Virus record (IMG/VR): IMGVR_UViG_3300043409_002481
Span: 1-64,000 of that record
Origin: a virus
DNA length: 64,000 bases
Direction: 5' to 3' (one strand)
Shown: in pieces, positions 4,433 to 64,000 of the stretch
Layout: every line of letters starts with the position of its first letter
How positions within the stretch are numbered: position 1 is the first letter of the stretch
Notes under the pieces: model-generated
What the model saw: only the letters and a program-made list of their open reading frames with translations
Databases searched by the model: none
What the model was told of the DNA's origin: nothing
Program-made: the position numbers and the translations under genes

Positions 4433-4782
4433 CCACCACCCGCGCAAACGAGGGAGTAGCGCCCCTCTCAAAACTAACAAGGTAACAACAACGCAAACAC
4501 AAATTAACTGCCATTTCGCACACGCATGGGACAGCGAAACTCACCCCGATCTAGCTGACAGGAAAGCAGCGATCGCACTAGCTAAAAGCTTAGCTCCCAA
4601 TGTCAAGAGCTTTGAGTATAACGGTAGCCAATCAAATGGCTTTGAGTTCTACTTTACAGAGATTGTGACTGTGACAGTGGACTTTGAAGATGGCGACTGT
4701 CTCGCAGACTTTGATGAGGTGCAGAATGCACAGCCACTTATCGCAGGTGGAGAAATGACAACGGCTCGTAGGGCGAAAAACA

Positions 4783-5115
4783 ATGCTTAACACAAAACAA
4801 ATACGTTCGTATGTCAAGCCAATCGGGAAATACATTCATAGAGGTGCTTTATTCCAATTATGTTTGGATTTGAATAGTGTTTGGGGCTTAGCCAGTTATT
4901 CAAACAAGCAAATTAGAACAGAATTAAAATTTCTATGCAAAAACTGGAAAGCCATCCTTAAATACAATAGATTGGATGAAGACAATGTTTTGTATCAAGG
5001 TAAATGGCGAAAAGTGATTAGGCATTTTATTGGTTACTTTGGCAAAGAATTACCAATTACAGAAGAACAATTTAATATTTTTCTAGACAAGCATCCAACG
5101 AGATTTGCAAAATAA
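4783..5115 (+). CDS. Hypothetical protein
   Basis: ORF track; ends just before terminator. Confidence 0.55.
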   Translation: MLNTKQIRSYVKPIGKYIHRGALFQLCLDLNSVWGLASYSNKQIRTELKFLCKNWKAILKYNRLDEDNVLYQGKWRKVIRHFIGYFGKELPITEEQFNIFLDKHPTRFAK

Positions 5116-5121
5116 CCAAAC

Positions 5122-5156
5122 AAAAAAGCGCTTACCATAGAGTTAGCGCTTTTTTT
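5122..5156. terminator. Intrinsic terminator
   Basis: AAAAAAGCGCT...AGCGCTTTTTTT. Confidence 0.8.
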
Positions 5157-5316
5157 GTTGCCATCATGCTTAAATTCACCAACGCAAAACCAGTACACAA
5201 AATTGAGGTGATTAAATCTCATGATCAATTTTTAGTACAAATAACTTTAAAGCCGCCTACTCTATTCGCTGCTGTGTCAGGACTAGGGATAAAAGCTCTG
5301 GGATGGAAAACCTATA

Positions 5317-5733
5317 ATGCTTAAATTTACCCTACCTACCACCCCGATCGCCGCTAAGCTCCTATCCAAGTTGCAAAACATAGAGCCTGTAATTAAATCT
5401 GTCAGCGCCGATCATGTGATTGCTCTGCAAGATAATATTATTCGTGAGGGAGGCGATCCTGATACGGGCGCGGCGTGGAAAACGCTCTCATCTAAGTATG
5501 TTGCCCATAAGAAGATGATCGGGGCGTTTATAACCATCCTCAGAAATACCGATAAAATGCGTAAAGGGATAACGGTAATCAGTAACGATGGTAAGAGCTA
5601 TCGGATCAGCGTTGTGGGAGATGCAAAAAAGTACTTTGCGTATGCTAATGAGGCTAGGCGGTTTTTGGGTATGAGTCCAGAGACTAAGGATCGGGCTAAA
5701 ATGGCATTGAGTAAACATTTGAAGGGTAAGTAG
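5317..5733 (+). CDS. Virion morphogenesis/neck protein (Mu gpG / P2 gpS-like)
   Basis: DPDTGAAWKTLS...ILRNTDKMRKGI...ARRFLGMS pattern. Confidence 0.7.
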   Translation: MLKFTLPTTPIAAKLLSKLQNIEPVIKSVSADHVIALQDNIIREGGDPDTGAAWKTLSSKYVAHKKMIGAFITILRNTDKMRKGITVISNDGKSYRISVVGDAKKYFAYANEARRFLGMSPETKDRAKMALSKHLKGK

Positions 5734-5739
5734 AAAACA

Positions 5740-6093
5740 ATGAAATTACTGAATAGAGAAGAATTTTTAAAGCTGCCAGAAGGTACACTTTACTCTGAAT
5801 ATGATCCTTACGTTTTTGGTGATATTCGAGTTAAAGGAGTATCTGGAGAGGGTAATAATGTTTATGCTTTAGATTTAATCGGTCTTTCTTCTGTCGGATT
5901 TAATGATTTCAATGAAGCCGCCAATGCTTTTGGGGAAACTAAACAAGGTGACTTGGATTTTGACTGCTATTGCAGAGATAATATTTTAGAGGATCAATTG
6001 TTTGCGGTCTTCGAGGCTAAAGAGTTAAGCGAGATTACAAAGATTTTGCAAACCGCTATGAGATTAGCAATCAACAGCGAGAAGGTGTTATGA
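5740..6093 (+). CDS. Hypothetical phage protein
   Basis: ORF track, operon context. Confidence 0.6.
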   Translation: MKLLNREEFLKLPEGTLYSEYDPYVFGDIRVKGVSGEGNNVYALDLIGLSSVGFNDFNEAANAFGETKQGDLDFDCYCRDNILEDQLFAVFEAKELSEITKILQTAMRLAINSEKVL

Positions 6094-6691: not shown

Positions 6692-7786
6692 ATATTACAG
6701 TAATAGAACAAAGCTATAAAAACTCTCGATTGCTAAAAGTGGCAGTGCGAACAGATAAACCCGTAGTATTGCCGATGGGCACATCGTTAATATTTAAACA
6801 ATATCCCTTGGCGAAGAAATCGCTTAAATATTTTGAGCAAAAGATCGAGGCGGCAACTAATTTATTTCTATCAGAGTCAGTCGGAATAGTTGTTACACTG
6901 ACTGAATCAATCACTTTAGATAGTGGTAATCTTTTTTTGCCTATAGCCCCTAATCACCCAGAAATACCTTGTGAGTATATCTGCTCAAATAGTTTAGATT
7001 TACTTGATATGGATATTTCGTTTGAGCAAGCTATGCAATGCTCACAGATGGCTGGTTTACTTAGATCGTAAAATCATGAAAAAATATCTACTACTCCCCT
7101 TCCTGTTTTTTGCCATCCCATCCCCCGCGATCGCAAACGAGCCGATTAACTATCCAGCCAACTTTATCGAATGGCGCGGCGTGGTCTACAACCTCGATCA
7201 TTTAGCTGGTACAGGTGTGCAAGTGATCGTCACAGTACAAGAGCAAAAGCCTGTTGAGAAAAGTGCGAAGCCCTTTGACGCGAATATGGAACGGGTAAAA
7301 TTCGAGAATGCTCGGAATCTGCTTTTGATTGAACAACTCGGGAATACAAGATAAAAATATGGCTGTGACATTACAATCAACATCTTTCGATAGTAACGGA
7401 AAACCAAAACACTTAATGAGTAAAGATGGCTCTTTAAGTGTTGATGGGATTAGTTGCACTGTTTCTGAGTTTGAAATTAGGGCATCTACGCAATCAATCA
7501 CCGCTTACAAGGCGGTAATTAAAGCGGATGAACGACAAGAAAATATTACTCTGTGCGCTTACATCAAAAATGATTTACAACGTTTACAGAGTGTTTTTAT
7601 TGCAGGATCTAACCCGTTTACAATTACTTCGGGTGATTATATTTTCAGGTGTTTGAGAGCAGTTTTAAGTTGCGGAGAAAAATGTTTTGAGATTGAAATT
7701 GAAGGAGCGTTTTTTATCAATCTCAATAGTGATATAATGCGTGAGTGAATGCGTCTTGTGTTTACCCTTTGTTAGTTTGTTGACTT

Positions 7787-7833
7787 AGCAGTTTGTCGTC
7801 CTGTGTTTCAGATGGACGACAAACTGCTTTTTT
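7787..7833. terminator. Long hairpin terminator between convergent genes
   Basis: AGCAGTTTGTCGTCC...GGACGACAAACTGCT followed by T tract. Confidence 0.8.
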
Positions 7834-8040
7834 ATTGATTAAATTTGTGGCGATACTTTACCAGCATCAACACAGTTGTAATTAACTTTAAATGACCAAA
7901 TATCAAGTTTGATATTTGCGATCGCCATTTCGCAATAAGTTTGATTTTCCATAGGAATAACAGCGATCGCTCTTGCATCATAGCTATAGGTTTGAATTAC
8001 TAAAAACCAAATAGTCAAAATACTGCAAATTAATTTCATC

Positions 8041-59895: not shown

Positions 59896-61347
59896 TTACA
59901 TAGCTCTACTACTGCCAAAGCTTGATTGACGATTAACAGGAGGCATAGATGCGATCGCATATCGCAAACAGTCGATACCATGTGTCACTTGGTTATCCGC
60001 CTCCTCCTCAGTGATGTTGCCATATTTATCCTTTTTGCGGTGATACGATTGGCACTCTTCAAAAAACTGAGGCAATGTGTCCACAATCTTGATTCGTTCG
60101 TGGTAAAAATCACTGCTCATTAAGTCAATGCCCTTGATAAAATCATTTACCGCGCCCCTGACTTCTGAGCAGTAATTCTTAAATGGCTCTTTAAATATTT
60201 GACCCTCTTTCGGTTTCCATACTCGCAATGATTTGATTGCATCTGGTCTAGATGGGTCACCAAAGGCTCTGTTAACTTGCCACTTCATTGCTAATTTATG
60301 GCACTCGTACAAAAAGTCATCTTCTAATATAGCCTGACCTTGCATTGTCCTAGGTACACGCCACTCATCAACTACAAACCAATGATAAAAGCCATCTTTG
60401 ATAAAGGCGCAAACCACTAAAGCCCTTGGATTTACCGCGCCCCAATCCACTGACAATATGCGATATGCAAACTCATTAGGTAAGTCGCGATCGCTGATGA
60501 TATGCCTAGCGCTTAGCGTCTCAAAGAATTGCCCCTCAAACATCTCAAAAGATGCTTCCATTTCTTGACGGAATAGCCTTGGTGACAAGCTTTGTCTAAG
60601 CAACTCAATGTCTTCTGGCTTGAGGTGTGGATTGTCTACGCTTTTAAATTTAAAAGCTTGCCATACCATCGGATCGGCTATGAGTGCATTTTCGTAAGCA
60701 TCATAGGTATGATTACTTTTACCTTTAGGTGTATAAGTGAATAGCGCTGTACTGCCTTGCGTATCAGATAATGCTGGCTGAATAATTTCAGGGAAAATAC
60801 TAGCTTTCCAGTCTTGCCACTCATCACCGCCAAAATGCCATAGGCGCAAACCACGAGCGCGATCGCCATCACCATCATTCAAACCCATAATCATGAGATC
60901 GGGCATATAGAACTTATACGGATCGGGGTTCTTAAAGGTAATCGTAAACTCTGATTTACTAACATTCTCGACAGCTTTGTGATTGCGTAGGATGTTTTGC
61001 AACTGCTTCCATAGCAGTCGCCTAGCCATAACCAAGGTAGGAGCAGCTAACACTACTACAGGCGGCGACACTGGATTGTATGGCGCACCAATCGCAACGC
61101 GCTCTAGGGCTTTGTATATCTGCAATACAGTTTTACCAAAACGCCGCCCTGACACTGCGATCGTGTATTTGGCGTGGCTATTGGCTATCGTTTGCTGTAA
61201 TGGATGTAACTGTATCTTCTGCTGTTGCGAGTATGTCTGAGAACGGGTTTGTTTCTGAGCTATCTGAGTCTCTACCTTTTCCCAAGCTCTTTCCATCCGA
61301 GCCTGTGTCGCTGGTAAGAGTTCTAGGATCGGTGAGAAGGTAGCCAA
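59896..61347 (-). CDS. terL: Terminase large subunit
   Basis: SGRRFGKT Walker A, RGLR..GGDE Walker B, TPKG, VDWG and HGIDCLRY nuclease motifs. Confidence 0.95.
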   Translation of the reverse strand: MATFSPILELLPATQARMERAWEKVETQIAQKQTRSQTYSQQQKIQLHPLQQTIANSHAKYTIAVSGRRFGKTVLQIYKALERVAIGAPYNPVSPPVVVLAAPTLVMARRLLWKQLQNILRNHKAVENVSKSEFTITFKNPDPYKFYMPDLMIMGLNDGDGDRARGLRLWHFGGDEWQDWKASIFPEIIQPALSDTQGSTALFTYTPKGKSNHTYDAYENALIADPMVWQAFKFKSVDNPHLKPEDIELLRQSLSPRLFRQEMEASFEMFEGQFFETLSARHIISDRDLPNEFAYRILSVDWGAVNPRALVVCAFIKDGFYHWFVVDEWRVPRTMQGQAILEDDFLYECHKLAMKWQVNRAFGDPSRPDAIKSLRVWKPKEGQIFKEPFKNYCSEVRGAVNDFIKGIDLMSSDFYHERIKIVDTLPQFFEECQSYHRKKDKYGNITEEEADNQVTHGIDCLRYAIASMPPVNRQSSFGSSRAM

Positions 61348-61789
61348 GTTTTAATGCCTCATTTACGATTTTGTCTGGCGACCATGTATCAAGGTCTAAT
61401 GCTGTCCGTCCGATGCGTTGGATAGTGGATAGAGAGCCAGATAACAGGCTTATATCCTTTGTTGCTAACAGTGTTTTATTAACCTTAGCTTCATTCAAAT
61501 GTCCAATTATCTGCCCTTGTAATGCCCTCGCAACAGTCAAGATATCAGCATCAAACTTAGTTTGCTCCCCTGCTAGGCTTGATACTTTTTCTTGCTTTGA
61601 CTCTTGAGATACACGCCTCAAGAATATCTTAGATTGCTCTACCCATTTGTCTTTTGACGATCTTTGCTGAATATAATTAAGGCTCATCCCATACTTTGTA
61701 GCTAAACTTTGCAAAGATGGGCGTGTATCATCGCTAGGGGCTTCTATATACTCCTTACTAATTTTATCCCAATCATGTTTTGATGCCAT
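61178..61789 (-). CDS. terS: Terminase small subunit
   Basis: DWDKISKEY...SLQSLATKYGMS...KDKW HTH, directly upstream of terL. Confidence 0.8.
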   Translation of the reverse strand: MASKHDWDKISKEYIEAPSDDTRPSLQSLATKYGMSLNYIQQRSSKDKWVEQSKIFLRRVSQESKQEKVSSLAGEQTKFDADILTVARALQGQIIGHLNEAKVNKTLLATKDISLLSGSLSTIQRIGRTALDLDTWSPDKIVNEALKLGYLLTDPRTLTSDTGSDGKSLGKGRDSDSSETNPFSDILATAEDTVTSITANDSQ

Positions 61790-61865: not shown

Positions 61866-62216
61866 TTATCTAGAAGTTCCATATTTCGCAAATTCAGATC
61901 CCGCATCATAAATTTTCCCAGAACCTCCACCCATGCCATTAGTACCAGTAGCGCTTCTAGCATTCACTGTAATCAACCGTTTAGCCTTACCTCGTTCTTG
62001 CTGGGTAGAATTCGGGTTTTTAAGAATAGCTTGATTTTTAGCAATATTACCAGCCGACGCTCCAAACTTAGACTCAACACTACTACGCTGACCTACAGCG
62101 CTACGCTTAGCGCCGCCTCCACCACCGCCTCCCTTCTTGAACCGACCACTCATCTTTGCGGGATCATTACCACCGTAATACTGAACACCGTTGCTATTGT
62201 CTAATGATTCCAACAT
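61866..62216 (-). CDS. Small basic Gly-rich protein A (116 aa), candidate radical SAM substrate
   Basis: GAGGT RBS before ATG 62216; N-terminal SLDNSNGVQYYGGNDPAKMSGRFKKGG. Confidence 0.8.
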   Translation of the reverse strand: MLESLDNSNGVQYYGGNDPAKMSGRFKKGGGGGGGAKRSAVGQRSSVESKFGASAGNIAKNQAILKNPNSTQQERGKAKRLITVNARSATGTNGMGGGSGKIYDAGSEFAKYGTSR

Positions 62217-63438
62217 AATCGACCTCATTAATTTCATTATCATCATACTCAATCATAGTATGAGTCCATCCATCCGCGCCATAACATAGTATAGGCAATT
62301 TATCCACATCATCTAACAAATAATTACCATTGCTGTCTACAGCATAGCTGAAAGCAGCTTTGTTGACTGGATGAAAAGGTACGTTATGAGACTTCAAAGA
62401 GCATTTTAAGATTGTCTCAAATGTTGGATTCTTAGGCACTTTAAAACCTAACGCTTTCTCAGGACACATTCTAACATTGCTATCGATATAGTGATAATTT
62501 TGTGATGTAACAAATGTGGGTAGTAATGGAGTAAAGAACTCTACCCATTCCCGTTGCGTGAAAAACTCACGGTTTAACGTAGCACACCGATTAATAAATT
62601 GCTGAACAACTGGGAATAATTTCGGGTACATCTTATAAGCGTCAAAAAAGTTTGAATACTTACCATTAGCAATACTGTAATTCTCTAACCCTATTGAGCT
62701 TGAATATTCACGACACATCTCTACAAATTCTTTCCTGTAAGGATCGCTATGTTTCTTCTTGAGGCAATCACTAATTAAATCTTCGCCTAATAACTTGCGA
62801 TCGCGATCTGACATTACCTTTTTCTGCTTAGTATTGATGTGCAGATTCTCCATCCATGTACCAAACACACCGATCTCTTTTAGCCGATCAAAGAACGGGA
62901 TAGGGTCTAATAACCAGTCAGGCTCGCAAGGGTTACATCCAACGATTACCGTATGACCTTTTGCGATCAAAGCTTCTAATAATTCATAGCGATGCTCTAA
63001 AGGCGGTGCGCTAGGCTCTATGGATTTGCGTGTTTCATCATCAGAGAAAGAGATCGACACATACCAAACACCAATCGGCATAAACTCTAATACCTTTTCC
63101 CATCCTTTACCGCCCTTGGTTTGCACAGAGTAAGGTATACCAAGCTCTGTCATGGTTCCCATAAAAGGAACCATTTGACGATAATTTGAAGCACTAAACG
63201 GGTCTATGTGGTTGCTAACAATTACAGGATAGCCGTCTCTCAGTAAATATCCCTCTATGGTATTTCTATTTTGATAATCAGCTAATAGCCTTGATACGCC
63301 CTTAACGTCAAGTGTACGAGTAGGACTATTAAGATTTGCGAAACAGTAGGCGCAAGCGTGAGCACACCAATTACCGCTTAATTCTAGGGGTGCGGGTATC
63401 TTAAGCAAACCGCCGTAAAGAGGCTTTAATCCATCCAT
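62194..63438 (-). CDS. Radical SAM enzyme, spore photoproduct lyase-like
   Basis: CAHACAYC (CxxxCxxC), SNHIDPF, QTKG, SIEPSAPPLEHR; no SPASM Cys cluster. Confidence 0.9.
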   Translation of the reverse strand: MDGLKPLYGGLLKIPAPLELSGNWCAHACAYCFANLNSPTRTLDVKGVSRLLADYQNRNTIEGYLLRDGYPVIVSNHIDPFSASNYRQMVPFMGTMTELGIPYSVQTKGGKGWEKVLEFMPIGVWYVSISFSDDETRKSIEPSAPPLEHRYELLEALIAKGHTVIVGCNPCEPDWLLDPIPFFDRLKEIGVFGTWMENLHINTKQKKVMSDRDRKLLGEDLISDCLKKKHSDPYRKEFVEMCREYSSSIGLENYSIANGKYSNFFDAYKMYPKLFPVVQQFINRCATLNREFFTQREWVEFFTPLLPTFVTSQNYHYIDSNVRMCPEKALGFKVPKNPTFETILKCSLKSHNVPFHPVNKAAFSYAVDSNGNYLLDDVDKLPILCYGADGWTHTMIEYDDNEINEVDYVGIIRQ

Positions 63439-63441
63439 GTT

Positions 63442-63801
63442 TTATTTAAAAAGGTTGAGTTGTCCTTGCCTTTCAAGTCTAGCGGATTGAATACTAGCAT
63501 TACGAGAAATATCACCTGAAGTCATGGCGCGTTTTTGAAATAGTGTTTTCTCTCCTTTGACGCGAGTATATGCCCGTTTACCCTTCCCTTGTATTGTGGC
63601 AATCGCGATTTTGTTGTTACGAATATCTCTAAGCAATTTACCAGTTTTTTTCTTTATACCTCTTTTGTTTAGACCCTTTACATTCATTAACAGTCGAGTC
63701 CCCCCCCCCGATCCTCCCTTCTTGAACCGACCACTCATCTTCTTAGGATCGTTCCCGCCGTAATACTGAGTACCGTCACTGTTGTCTAGCGATCGCACCA
63801 T
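63442..63801 (-). CDS. Small basic protein B (119 aa), candidate radical SAM substrate
   Basis: AAGGTG RBS before ATG 63801; N-terminal SLDNSDGTQYYGGNDPKKMSGRFKKGG. Confidence 0.8.
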   Translation of the reverse strand: MVRSLDNSDGTQYYGGNDPKKMSGRFKKGGSGGGTRLLMNVKGLNKRGIKKKTGKLLRDIRNNKIAIATIQGKGKRAYTRVKGEKTLFQKRAMTSGDISRNASIQSARLERQGQLNLFK

Positions 63802-63811
63802 AATAATCACC

Positions 63812-64000
63812 TTAGATCTCTTGAGATTCTAGCAGCATTTCAAACGCAGCAGTATCATTTTTTATCCCAATACTTTCCTTATACTCATTCCATCTTTGCA
63901 TAGTGCGACTGCCAACGACAATCGGTATAGGCTGCTTGTTGCCGCCACTGCGATCGCTTGCGTATGCTGGTAAGTCATTATTGTCTGAGAACTTGAGAAA
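63812..64000 (-). CDS. 3' end of an upstream gene cut by the window edge
   Basis: Open frame ...KQPIPIVVGSRTMQRWNEYKESIGIKNDTAAFEMLLESQEI-stop. Confidence 0.65.
   Translation of the reverse strand, partial: FLKFSDNNDLPAYASDRSGGNKQPIPIVVGSRTMQRWNEYKESIGIKNDTAAFEMLLESQEI

Follow-up and report, generated by a model that had tools for sequence, protein, structure and literature searches.

The sole characterised relative of the enzyme considered here is gp53 of Pseudomonas phage M6, a spore photoproduct lyase (SPL)-like radical S-adenosylmethionine (rSAM) protein for which a reaction on DNA has been proposed: N-alpha-glycinyl-thymidine would lose the C-alpha hydrogen of its glycine and then be rearranged (PMC8989533). 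The subject of this report is a gene cluster near one end of a 64,000-nt stretch of cyanophage DNA, hereafter the window, which comprises bases 1-64000 of the 75.7-kb IMG/VR virus record IMGVR_UViG_3300043409_002481 (the whole record is labelled G000). In this cluster a remote homologue of gp53 is encoded beside a ParB-like protein, and between two genes whose products open with the same 27-residue peptide, here called the tag, just upstream of the small terminase gene terS. The ParB-rSAM-tag module is undescribed, and it is widespread, its enzyme turning up in hundreds of uncultivated phages and frequently next to toxin-like enzymes that bear tags of a similar kind; a full-text search of the literature returned no description of it. 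It resembles the M6 system in that the enzyme is phage-encoded with a CxxxCxxC core, and in that gp53 chemistry starts at the glycine C-alpha hydrogen, glycine being the hallmark of the tag. The differences are several: gp53 has an N-terminal extension of ~118 residues, whereas the family here has a C-terminal one of ~150 residues; gp53 works together with a P-loop kinase, an aGPT-Pplase and a pyridoxal phosphate (PLP) enzyme on DNA containing 5-hydroxymethyldeoxyuridine (5-hmdU), and those three were not found here; and, unlike the present enzyme, gp53 has neither a ParB partner nor accompanying tagged proteins.

Four other systems invite comparison. In phage T4, certain proteins bear a capsid targeting signal (CTS), which the scaffold core recognises and the prohead protease cuts off, and which is not known to have an enzyme partner. 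This short N-terminal sequence is shared by the internal proteins IPI-III and the ADP-ribosyltransferase Alt, an often basic cargo that travels with the genome (reviewed in PMC9026906). The tagged proteins described here likewise carry a shared N-terminal peptide on unrelated cargo that includes ADP-ribosyltransferases; unlike the T4 signal, their tag is tied to the rSAM/ParB pair and is independent of the head genes, and no protease was seen in the head module. In type IV cyclic-oligonucleotide-based antiphage signalling systems (CBASS), Cap9 (QueC-like) and Cap10 (TGT-like) join a nucleobase to the Gly-rich N-terminal tail GGSGGSFGSG... of a protein (bioRxiv 10.1101/2025.04.06.647259). The likeness lies in a Gly-rich protein N-terminus serving as substrate for enzymes recruited from nucleic-acid modification, and tags from relatives of the module, such as MASAGGSFKKGGG, look similar to that tail; however, type IV CBASS is a host defence and not a phage packaging module, and the Gly-rich part of the tag in the window does not lie at the extreme N-terminus. 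Searches of G000 gave no QueC or TGT match, while the same searches matched all 14 control genomes; there was also no DUF4417 match, in a search that is weak, since it matched none of the control genomes either. The leader-guided rSAM maturases and spliceases of ribosomally synthesised peptides that are modified after translation (RiPPs) share with the module an rSAM gene beside genes with a conserved N-terminus and a variable remainder, but they have a SPASM domain and a peptidase or exporter, neither of which was seen here, whereas here large enzymes are among the cargo, and the genes belong to a packaging operon that also encodes a ParB partner. Finally, MuF-fused polymorphic toxins and polyvalent phage proteins, reportedly described by Jamet et al. 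in 2017, also have swappable effector domains, ADP-ribosyltransferase among them, encoded beside head and packaging genes; MuF delivery uses a whole MuF or portal-associated domain, whereas delivery here would use a peptide of 10-30 residues and an enzyme.

A shared N-terminal tag linked to a radical SAM gene

The genes form a densely packed operon on the minus strand, in the order ParB-like protein, tagged protein A, rSAM, tagged protein B, terS and terL (large terminase). Protein A (119 aa; 63442..63801, with its ATG at 63801) consists of the tag, a Gly run and a basic tail, with a pI of 11.75, and protein B (116 aa; 61866..62216, ATG at 62216) of the tag, a Gly7 run and a basic tail, with a pI of 10.8. 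Both were delimited as open reading frames (ORFs) and compared by BLASTP. The tag occupies codons 4-30 in each, as SLDNSDGTQYYGGNDPKKMSGRFKKGG in protein A (63712..63792, minus strand) and as SLDNSNGVQYYGGNDPAKMSGRFKKGG in protein B (62127..62207, minus strand). Between them lies the rSAM gene (62194..63438, minus strand; 414 aa; Pfam Radical_SAM, E 1e-6). Only 10 nt separate the stop codon of the ParB-like gene from the ATG of protein A, and 3 nt the stop codon of protein A from the ATG of the rSAM; the ATG of protein B, preceded by GAGG, overlaps the 3' end of the rSAM gene by 23 nt, and a gap of 76 nt follows before terS.

The alignment of proteins A and B is confined to the N-terminus, where 29 of 35 residues are identical (BLASTP, E 1e-19); the tails share 17 identities over ~80 residues in their best global alignment. 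Across codons 4-30 the two tags differ by nine synonymous and three replacement codon changes, giving dS 1.2, dN 0.08 and dN/dS 0.068 (Nei-Gojobori). When the 11 tag copies from six related phages were aligned, 524 synonymous pairwise codon differences were counted against 140 replacement differences, with 22 invariant columns and synonymous variants at nearly every motif codon. This synonymous excess and the low dN/dS mean that the whole 27-residue peptide, its SLDNS..QYYGGNDP part included, is translated and under purifying selection. The tag is thus selected as a peptide, and its two copies have not recently been homogenised. Conservation at the nucleotide level, as in an RNA element, and recent gene conversion were both considered as causes of the similarity and rejected, because dS between the copies is about 1.2. 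These results agree with an earlier reading made from the DNA letters without database searches (the sequence-only reading), which had described two genes flanking the rSAM that open with one 27-residue motif followed by a Gly run and unrelated basic tails, had placed all three genes in close coupling just upstream of terS, had counted the nine synonymous and three amino-acid changes by hand exactly as found here, and had concluded that the peptide rather than the DNA is conserved.

The remainder of the tagged proteins is far less constant. Within the clade whose rSAMs are 87-98% identical, the slot of protein A holds at least four unrelated tails, and the tail of protein A itself recurs in an orthologue in locus L010. 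Unrelated tails in one slot, despite such close identity of the enzyme, mark the tag as a constant head on swappable bodies. The tail of protein B has orthologues (65-74% identity) in L010-L013. Scans of Pfam, PHROG and NCBIfam assigned no family to either tail, and the ESM Atlas gave no usable match for that of protein A.

Co-occurrence of the full tag with the enzyme was assessed with a degenerate DNA pattern for QYYGGNDP, run on IMG/VR and on Joint Genome Institute (JGI) metagenome contigs. The seven matching stretches in IMG/VR all lie on the six contigs that carry a closely related rSAM. Among the metagenome contigs 19 stretches matched, six of them chance matches to eight residues and 13 belonging to the full tag; 12 of these 13 have an rSAM directly adjacent, and the thirteenth ends at a contig edge, so that all 12 informative contigs carry the enzyme. 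That motif-bearing proteins occur independently of the rSAM was one of the outcomes that the sequence-only reading had named as refuting its proposal, and the full motif was seen solely on rSAM-bearing contigs (six viral; 12 of 12 metagenome). Tag and rSAM are genetically linked far beyond this window.

The tag does not track the capsid. The loci L013, L111 and L112 retain the ParB-like protein (95% identity), the rSAM (97-99%), the tag and TerS (81-84%), although their portal and major head proteins are just 33% and 34% identical, respectively. More generally, TerS proteins that are 81-90% identical occur in phages with a different TerL, portal and capsid. In L012 and L013 the similarity of TerL stops after residue 39-40, which is the end of the overlap with terS, and beyond that point TerL is unrelated. 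A recombination breakpoint accordingly lies at the terS end, in the terS/terL overlap (window 61178-61347), as seen in L012, L013, L111 and L112. The constancy of the ParB-terS block across this change of portal and capsid shows that the block moves as a unit and that the tag is independent of the head genes; its last gene is terS (61178..61789, minus strand), identified by a weak match to PHROG terS families (best E 1e-4). The partner of the tag is therefore likely to be found within the block (the rSAM, the ParB-like protein or TerS) or on DNA, rather than in the head.

The enzyme, its ParB-like partner and their relatives

The [4Fe-4S]/SAM motif CxxxCxxC of the rSAM (63343..63366, minus strand) comprises C25, C29 and C32, which are the only invariant or near-invariant cysteines in an alignment of 35 diverse family members, and a SPASM domain is therefore absent. 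An AlphaFold model (pLDDT 91) places residues 1-257 closest to the activating enzyme of pyruvate formate-lyase (PFL; Z 17.7) and to SPL (4fhc; Z 16.9, rmsd 3.4 over 237 residues), followed by an extra C-terminal region of residues ~260-414 that has no assigned fold. An activating enzyme of the PFL type, though the top fold match, was rejected as a model: used as a control, E. coli PflA gave a probability of 3.7% in hhalign and no phmmer match, and no glycyl-radical enzyme is encoded in the operon. In its general placement the protein appears SPL-like and not of the SPASM type, as the sequence-only reading had it, with just three conserved cluster cysteines; it does not group by sequence with SPL proper, the family profile having returned no rSAM at E<=1 among PDB chains. 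No RRE/PqqD-like domain was matched in Pfam, and fold searches, mainly with residues 1-362, matched solely rSAM cores. Sequence comparison links the rSAM specifically, as a remote homologue, to gp53 of phage M6. Its family profile aligned with gp53 at 97.8% probability (hhalign; E 1e-12, 223 columns, identity ~22%), and a phmmer query with gp53 recovered the rSAM ORFs of more than 50 loci (best E 3.5e-9). Weaker hidden Markov model (HMM) links were found to the Rv2578c, PA0069 and uracil-DNA glycosylase (UDG)-linked rSAM families. The neighbours of gp53 in M6 (5-hmdU kinase, aGPT-Pplase and PLP decarboxylase) have no homologue at E<=0.01 in G000 or in 99 related loci, and G000 gave no Thymidylat_synt or Thy1 match, that is, no ThyA- or ThyX-type enzyme able to make 5-hmdU. 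With the rest of the gp53 pathway and the thymidylate-synthase-type enzymes missing, the protein described here is a gp53 relative in a different context and not a member of that pathway.

Two further analyses of the enzyme did not discriminate between substrates. The median pI of the family is 6.2, and net charge did not separate DNA binding from peptide binding. Prediction of a complex of the rSAM, its 4Fe-4S cluster and SAM with residues 1-45 of a tagged protein gave a median score of 0.17 against a mark of 0.32, a result that carries no weight either way.

The most constant partner of the enzyme is the ParB-like gene, which the sequence-only reading had not mentioned. It accompanies the rSAM in 83 of the 100 loci examined in a wider survey, in 68 of them from a position directly upstream on the strand of the enzyme, and often with an overlap into the start of the rSAM gene; the exceptions are mostly at contig edges, or belong to a clade with a ParB domain downstream. 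Its 3' part lies in the window (63812..64000, minus strand), and the whole gene (G000 63812-64459, minus strand, 215 aa) extends beyond the window end. Homology to the ParB N-terminal domain, within the ParB/Srx superfamily, was found through PHROG 498 (the ParB-like N-domain of phage DNA methyltransferases; E 1.4e-12) and PHROG 620 (ParB-like; E 8e-12). Pfam ParB_N did not match the window protein, and in relatives it is below the gathering cut-off or absent.

At a threshold of E<=1e-30 the rSAM family falls into 354 clusters at 50% identity, mostly viral. Its members come from phages and prophages assigned to Cyanobacteriota, Bacteroidota, Chloroflexota, Acidobacteriota, Pseudomonadota and other phyla, and some are encoded in regions resembling prophages in Oculatella, Nodosilinea, Chitinophaga and several lineages represented by metagenome-assembled genomes (MAGs). 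The module is present in prophage-like regions of two cultured cyanobacteria, Oculatella sp. LEGE 06141 and Nodosilinea sp. FACHB-131. When the rSAM of the window and one distant member were compared by tblastn with 50,697 GenBank phage genomes no match was obtained, and blastn of the locus gave none either; absence from the deposited phage genomes may explain why the family went unnoticed. Fused forms of at least 726 aa were sought in the family and not found. Two family representatives, P0189 (708 aa) and P0159 (759 aa), are not fusions, but have an insertion of ~310-345 residues right after CxxxCxxC; that of P0189 contains a LAGLIDADG domain and looks intein-like, in the active-site region, which recalls the intein-containing Rv2578c rSAM family of NCBIfam.

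Many distant homologues of the enzyme (30-45% identity) are accompanied by two to seven genes per phage whose products share a common N-terminal peptide and have unrelated remainders. Such tags, different from that of the window, were found in L016, L018, L019, L023, L030, L034, L035, L054/L075, L085, L092, L093 and L101; examples are MAASGGHWKxGxF, MASKGGSWKSGKF, MASxGGHWxK, MASAGGSFKKG, MAGNGSRGGxGRG, MASSAVRSKVGRKFGG and MAGSNGTAKGTAKG. Their common denominator is M-A-(small)-x-G-G-(aromatic or basic)-K/R-x-G, to which the window offers as counterpart solely MSGRFKKGG and the Gly run, after the clade-specific segment SLDNS..QYYGGNDPxK. An HMM of the window tag found no copy beyond the close clade. 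MSGRFKKGG is like tags such as MASAGGSFKKGGG over a short stretch of low complexity, a likeness that does not prove homology. Under a blind rule for tag-like starts, 66 of 5718 ATG starts on the rSAM strand qualified, versus one of 2782 on the opposite strand, and most of them lie within ~40 nt of the rSAM stop. A tag adjacent to the enzyme was found in 22-23 of 75 clusters by a strict rule, and in about half by eye. On the rSAM tree the tag classes are grouped, with 13 changes against 35.5 expected from shuffling. In IMG/VR, GGxWKxG tags in multiple copies are restricted to rSAM contigs. A degenerate DNA scan for GGxWKxG also found single look-alikes with no rSAM within 5 kb (L117/L124, L120 and L129/131/132), which weigh neither for nor against an independence of tag and enzyme. 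The same applies to proteins of ~92-94 residues in L122, L123, L128 and L136 of IMG/VR, which start MA(R/K)SGGTWKKGQ(G/S)G(K/N)PKG and have no rSAM nearby.

The cargo of these tags is varied. Domains recognised on tagged proteins are ADPrib_exo_Tox (three proteins), NUDIX, GNAT and ParB_N; the tagged enzymes of relatives are 200-751 aa long, and those reaching 508-751 aa carry NUDIX or ADP-ribosyltransferase domains. In the sister clade of the window's rSAM the tag is borne by the ParB-domain protein itself, and in one proteobacterial-type clade the downstream Gly/Arg-rich proteins have merely 46-80 residues. In L101, from the MAG of an uncultured cyanobacterium, three paralogues (4595-5173, 5282-5869 and 7297-7881), two upstream and one downstream of the rSAM, start MAGS(S/N)GTAKGTAKGSKS and have a GNAT-like C-terminal region.

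What the module may do

The explanation we favour, and put forward tentatively, is that the ParB-like protein and the gp53-like rSAM act on the Gly-rich tags of proteins that accompany the genome. Equally provisionally, the ParB-terS region may be regarded as one copy of a widespread phage module, with a core of ParB-like protein and rSAM, and with Gly/Lys/Arg-tagged clients. With a 5'-deoxyadenosyl radical, the rSAM would take a hydrogen off the C-alpha of a glycine within the tag; in the window, the predicted target site would lie within or beside MSGRFKKGG and the Gly run. The ParB-like protein would serve as a nucleotide- or DNA-binding helper. Once modified, the tagged proteins would be bound for a fate linked to packaging, most probably transfer with the genome to the next host. 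The putative clients in the window are two basic proteins that probably bind DNA; in other phages they would be proteins with ADP-ribosyltransferase, NUDIX, GNAT or ParB domains. The sequence-only reading had also suggested that the cargo may be packaged or injected, and the effector-type domains (ADP-ribosyltransferase, NUDIX and GNAT) on the tagged proteins of relatives are consistent with this. If the tag is the substrate, the enzyme would be the first known rSAM with effector or internal proteins of phages as its targets, and the module would embody a new principle by which proteins are selected to go with a phage genome. Candidate effectors of host takeover or anti-defence are the tagged ADP-ribosyltransferases, NUDIX and GNAT enzymes, and a short portable tag, independent of capsid type, might in principle be used for cargo loading. 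The gp53 link supplies a concrete and testable chemical hypothesis, and the cultured cyanobacterial carriers make experiments feasible.

Several observations weigh against this interpretation. The clustering of tag classes on the rSAM tree can be explained by shared descent alone. In L023, L034, L085 and L093 the tagged genes lie kilobases from the enzyme. A ParB-rSAM pair without a convincing tag is found in G001, G002 and the complete 46-kb G004, and in roughly half of the clusters, so that the enzyme may have a substrate other than the tagged proteins, which may be optional clients. In the window the Gly/basic segment is internal, after a clade-specific extension of 21 residues, and models that need a free N-terminus therefore do not apply to it directly. 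The substrate of M6 gp53, the nearest characterised relative, is a glycine-DNA conjugate (PMC8989533); together with the Rv2578c, PA0069 and UDG-linked families (weakly) and the methyltransferase-type ParB partner, gp53 points to DNA, and an enzyme acting on DNA was another outcome that the sequence-only reading had named as refuting it.

It is accordingly possible, though on balance unlikely, that the ParB-like protein and the rSAM are a DNA-modification pair, in which ParB brings the enzyme to DNA around packaging and a base modification is installed or remodelled, the tags being bystanders. The tagged basic proteins would on this account be DNA-binding or co-packaged proteins that merely share the neighbourhood. 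Besides the DNA substrate of gp53 (PMC8989533) and the weak HMM links to what are described as 'DNA modification/repair' rSAM families, this explanation draws on the JGI label of family members ('DNA repair photolyase'), on the best match of the ParB-like partner being to the N-terminal ParB domain of phage DNA methyltransferases, on the constancy of ParB as a neighbour while tags are missing from many loci and from the three genomes just named, and on the presence in the genome of a dCTP deaminase-like gene and several methyltransferases. However, the other genes of thymidine hypermodification have no homologue in the genome or in the 99 related loci, nor has the genome a ThyA- or ThyX-type enzyme for 5-hmdU. 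The pair would also leave unexplained the strand bias of 66 tag-like starts against one, the crowding of tags right after the rSAM stop, and the fact that the full tag never turned up without the enzyme.

Improbable, in our judgement, is a third possibility, that the tag works in the manner of the T4 CTS, as a signal for capsid targeting or ejection which head proteins, portal proteins or TerS would recognise without any part played by the rSAM. A short N-terminal peptide common to unrelated cargo that includes ADP-ribosyltransferases is what IPI-III and Alt display, basic proteins make up the cargo, and their genes fall in the packaging and head region. Yet the tag stays the same where identity of the portal and major head proteins is down to 33-34% and TerL is unrelated; the head module, with its portal, scaffold and major head protein, yielded no recognisable prohead protease; and the strict co-occurrence of tag and rSAM is left unexplained. 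We likewise regard with considerable doubt a further proposal, in which the rSAM, with help from the ParB-like protein, would covalently join the Gly-rich tag, through a glycine C-alpha radical, to a nucleobase, a nucleotide or phage DNA, the terminase then reeling the tagged effectors and basic proteins into the capsid along with the genome, for joint delivery. Such a joining would constitute a protein-DNA conjugation route for loading injected proteins, and it would parallel both the amino-acid:thymidine conjugates of M6 and the N-terminal deazaguanylation of type IV CBASS.

That the flanking genes are classical RiPP precursors, whose leader guides the rSAM as a maturase (splicease-like at YG, or with GG cleavage) towards a small peptide, is very improbable, since the features that recall such a layout, namely a conserved N-terminus with a variable remainder beside an rSAM, and the products of merely 46-80 residues downstream of the enzyme in one clade, are set against a family without SPASM or twitch cysteines, an operon without peptidase or exporter, folded enzymes of 200-751 aa among the tagged proteins, the restriction of YYGG to a single clade, and a position in a packaging operon with ParB and TerS. 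The sequence-only reading therefore stands in part: the linkage of tag and rSAM, the effector-type cargo and the SPL-like enzyme remain, while its RiPP or splicease frame fails on the auxiliary-cluster cysteines, the leader peptidase or exporter and the large enzyme cargo, and its focus on YYGG is weakened, other clades starting straight with the Gly/basic pattern. YYGG is unlikely to be a general target of the enzyme.

Terminase, record ends and neighbouring genes

The terL gene (59896..61347, minus strand) is assigned by a strong match to PHROG 2 (E 7e-32) and by Pfam Terminase_6N. Its listed start overlaps terS, and the first ~39 residues of the ORF are conserved merely through that overlap, so the true start of TerL is probably farther downstream than listed. 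The genes for portal, scaffold and major head protein are convergent with the ParB-terL operon. Bases 1-126 of the record (and of the window) recur exactly at G000 75558-75683, 16 bases before the last base, and the record, though labelled 'linear', probably represents the whole of a genome of ~75.56 kb that is circularly permuted or terminally redundant.

A few kilobases upstream of the module, and on the same strand, a dCTP deaminase-like gene (Pfam DCD, E 4e-20) adjoins a gene for an AAA_28 P-loop protein (G000 67594-69136, minus strand; L003 6595-8137), and it may hint at altered nucleotide pools. Just upstream of the ParB-like gene, and divergent from it, lies a homing-type endonuclease gene with NUMOD4 and HNH_3 matches in Pfam (G000 64615-65148; L003 3616-4149), to which an ORF at G000 72625-73173 (L003 11626-12174) is similar in its N-terminal sequence. 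In the complete 46-kb phage G004 (L138), three tandem paralogues of 225 aa with ..RGGSW.. motifs are encoded at ~32.6-34.9 kb, and by eye only they resemble the domains of formylglycine-generating enzyme and sulfatase-modifying factor.

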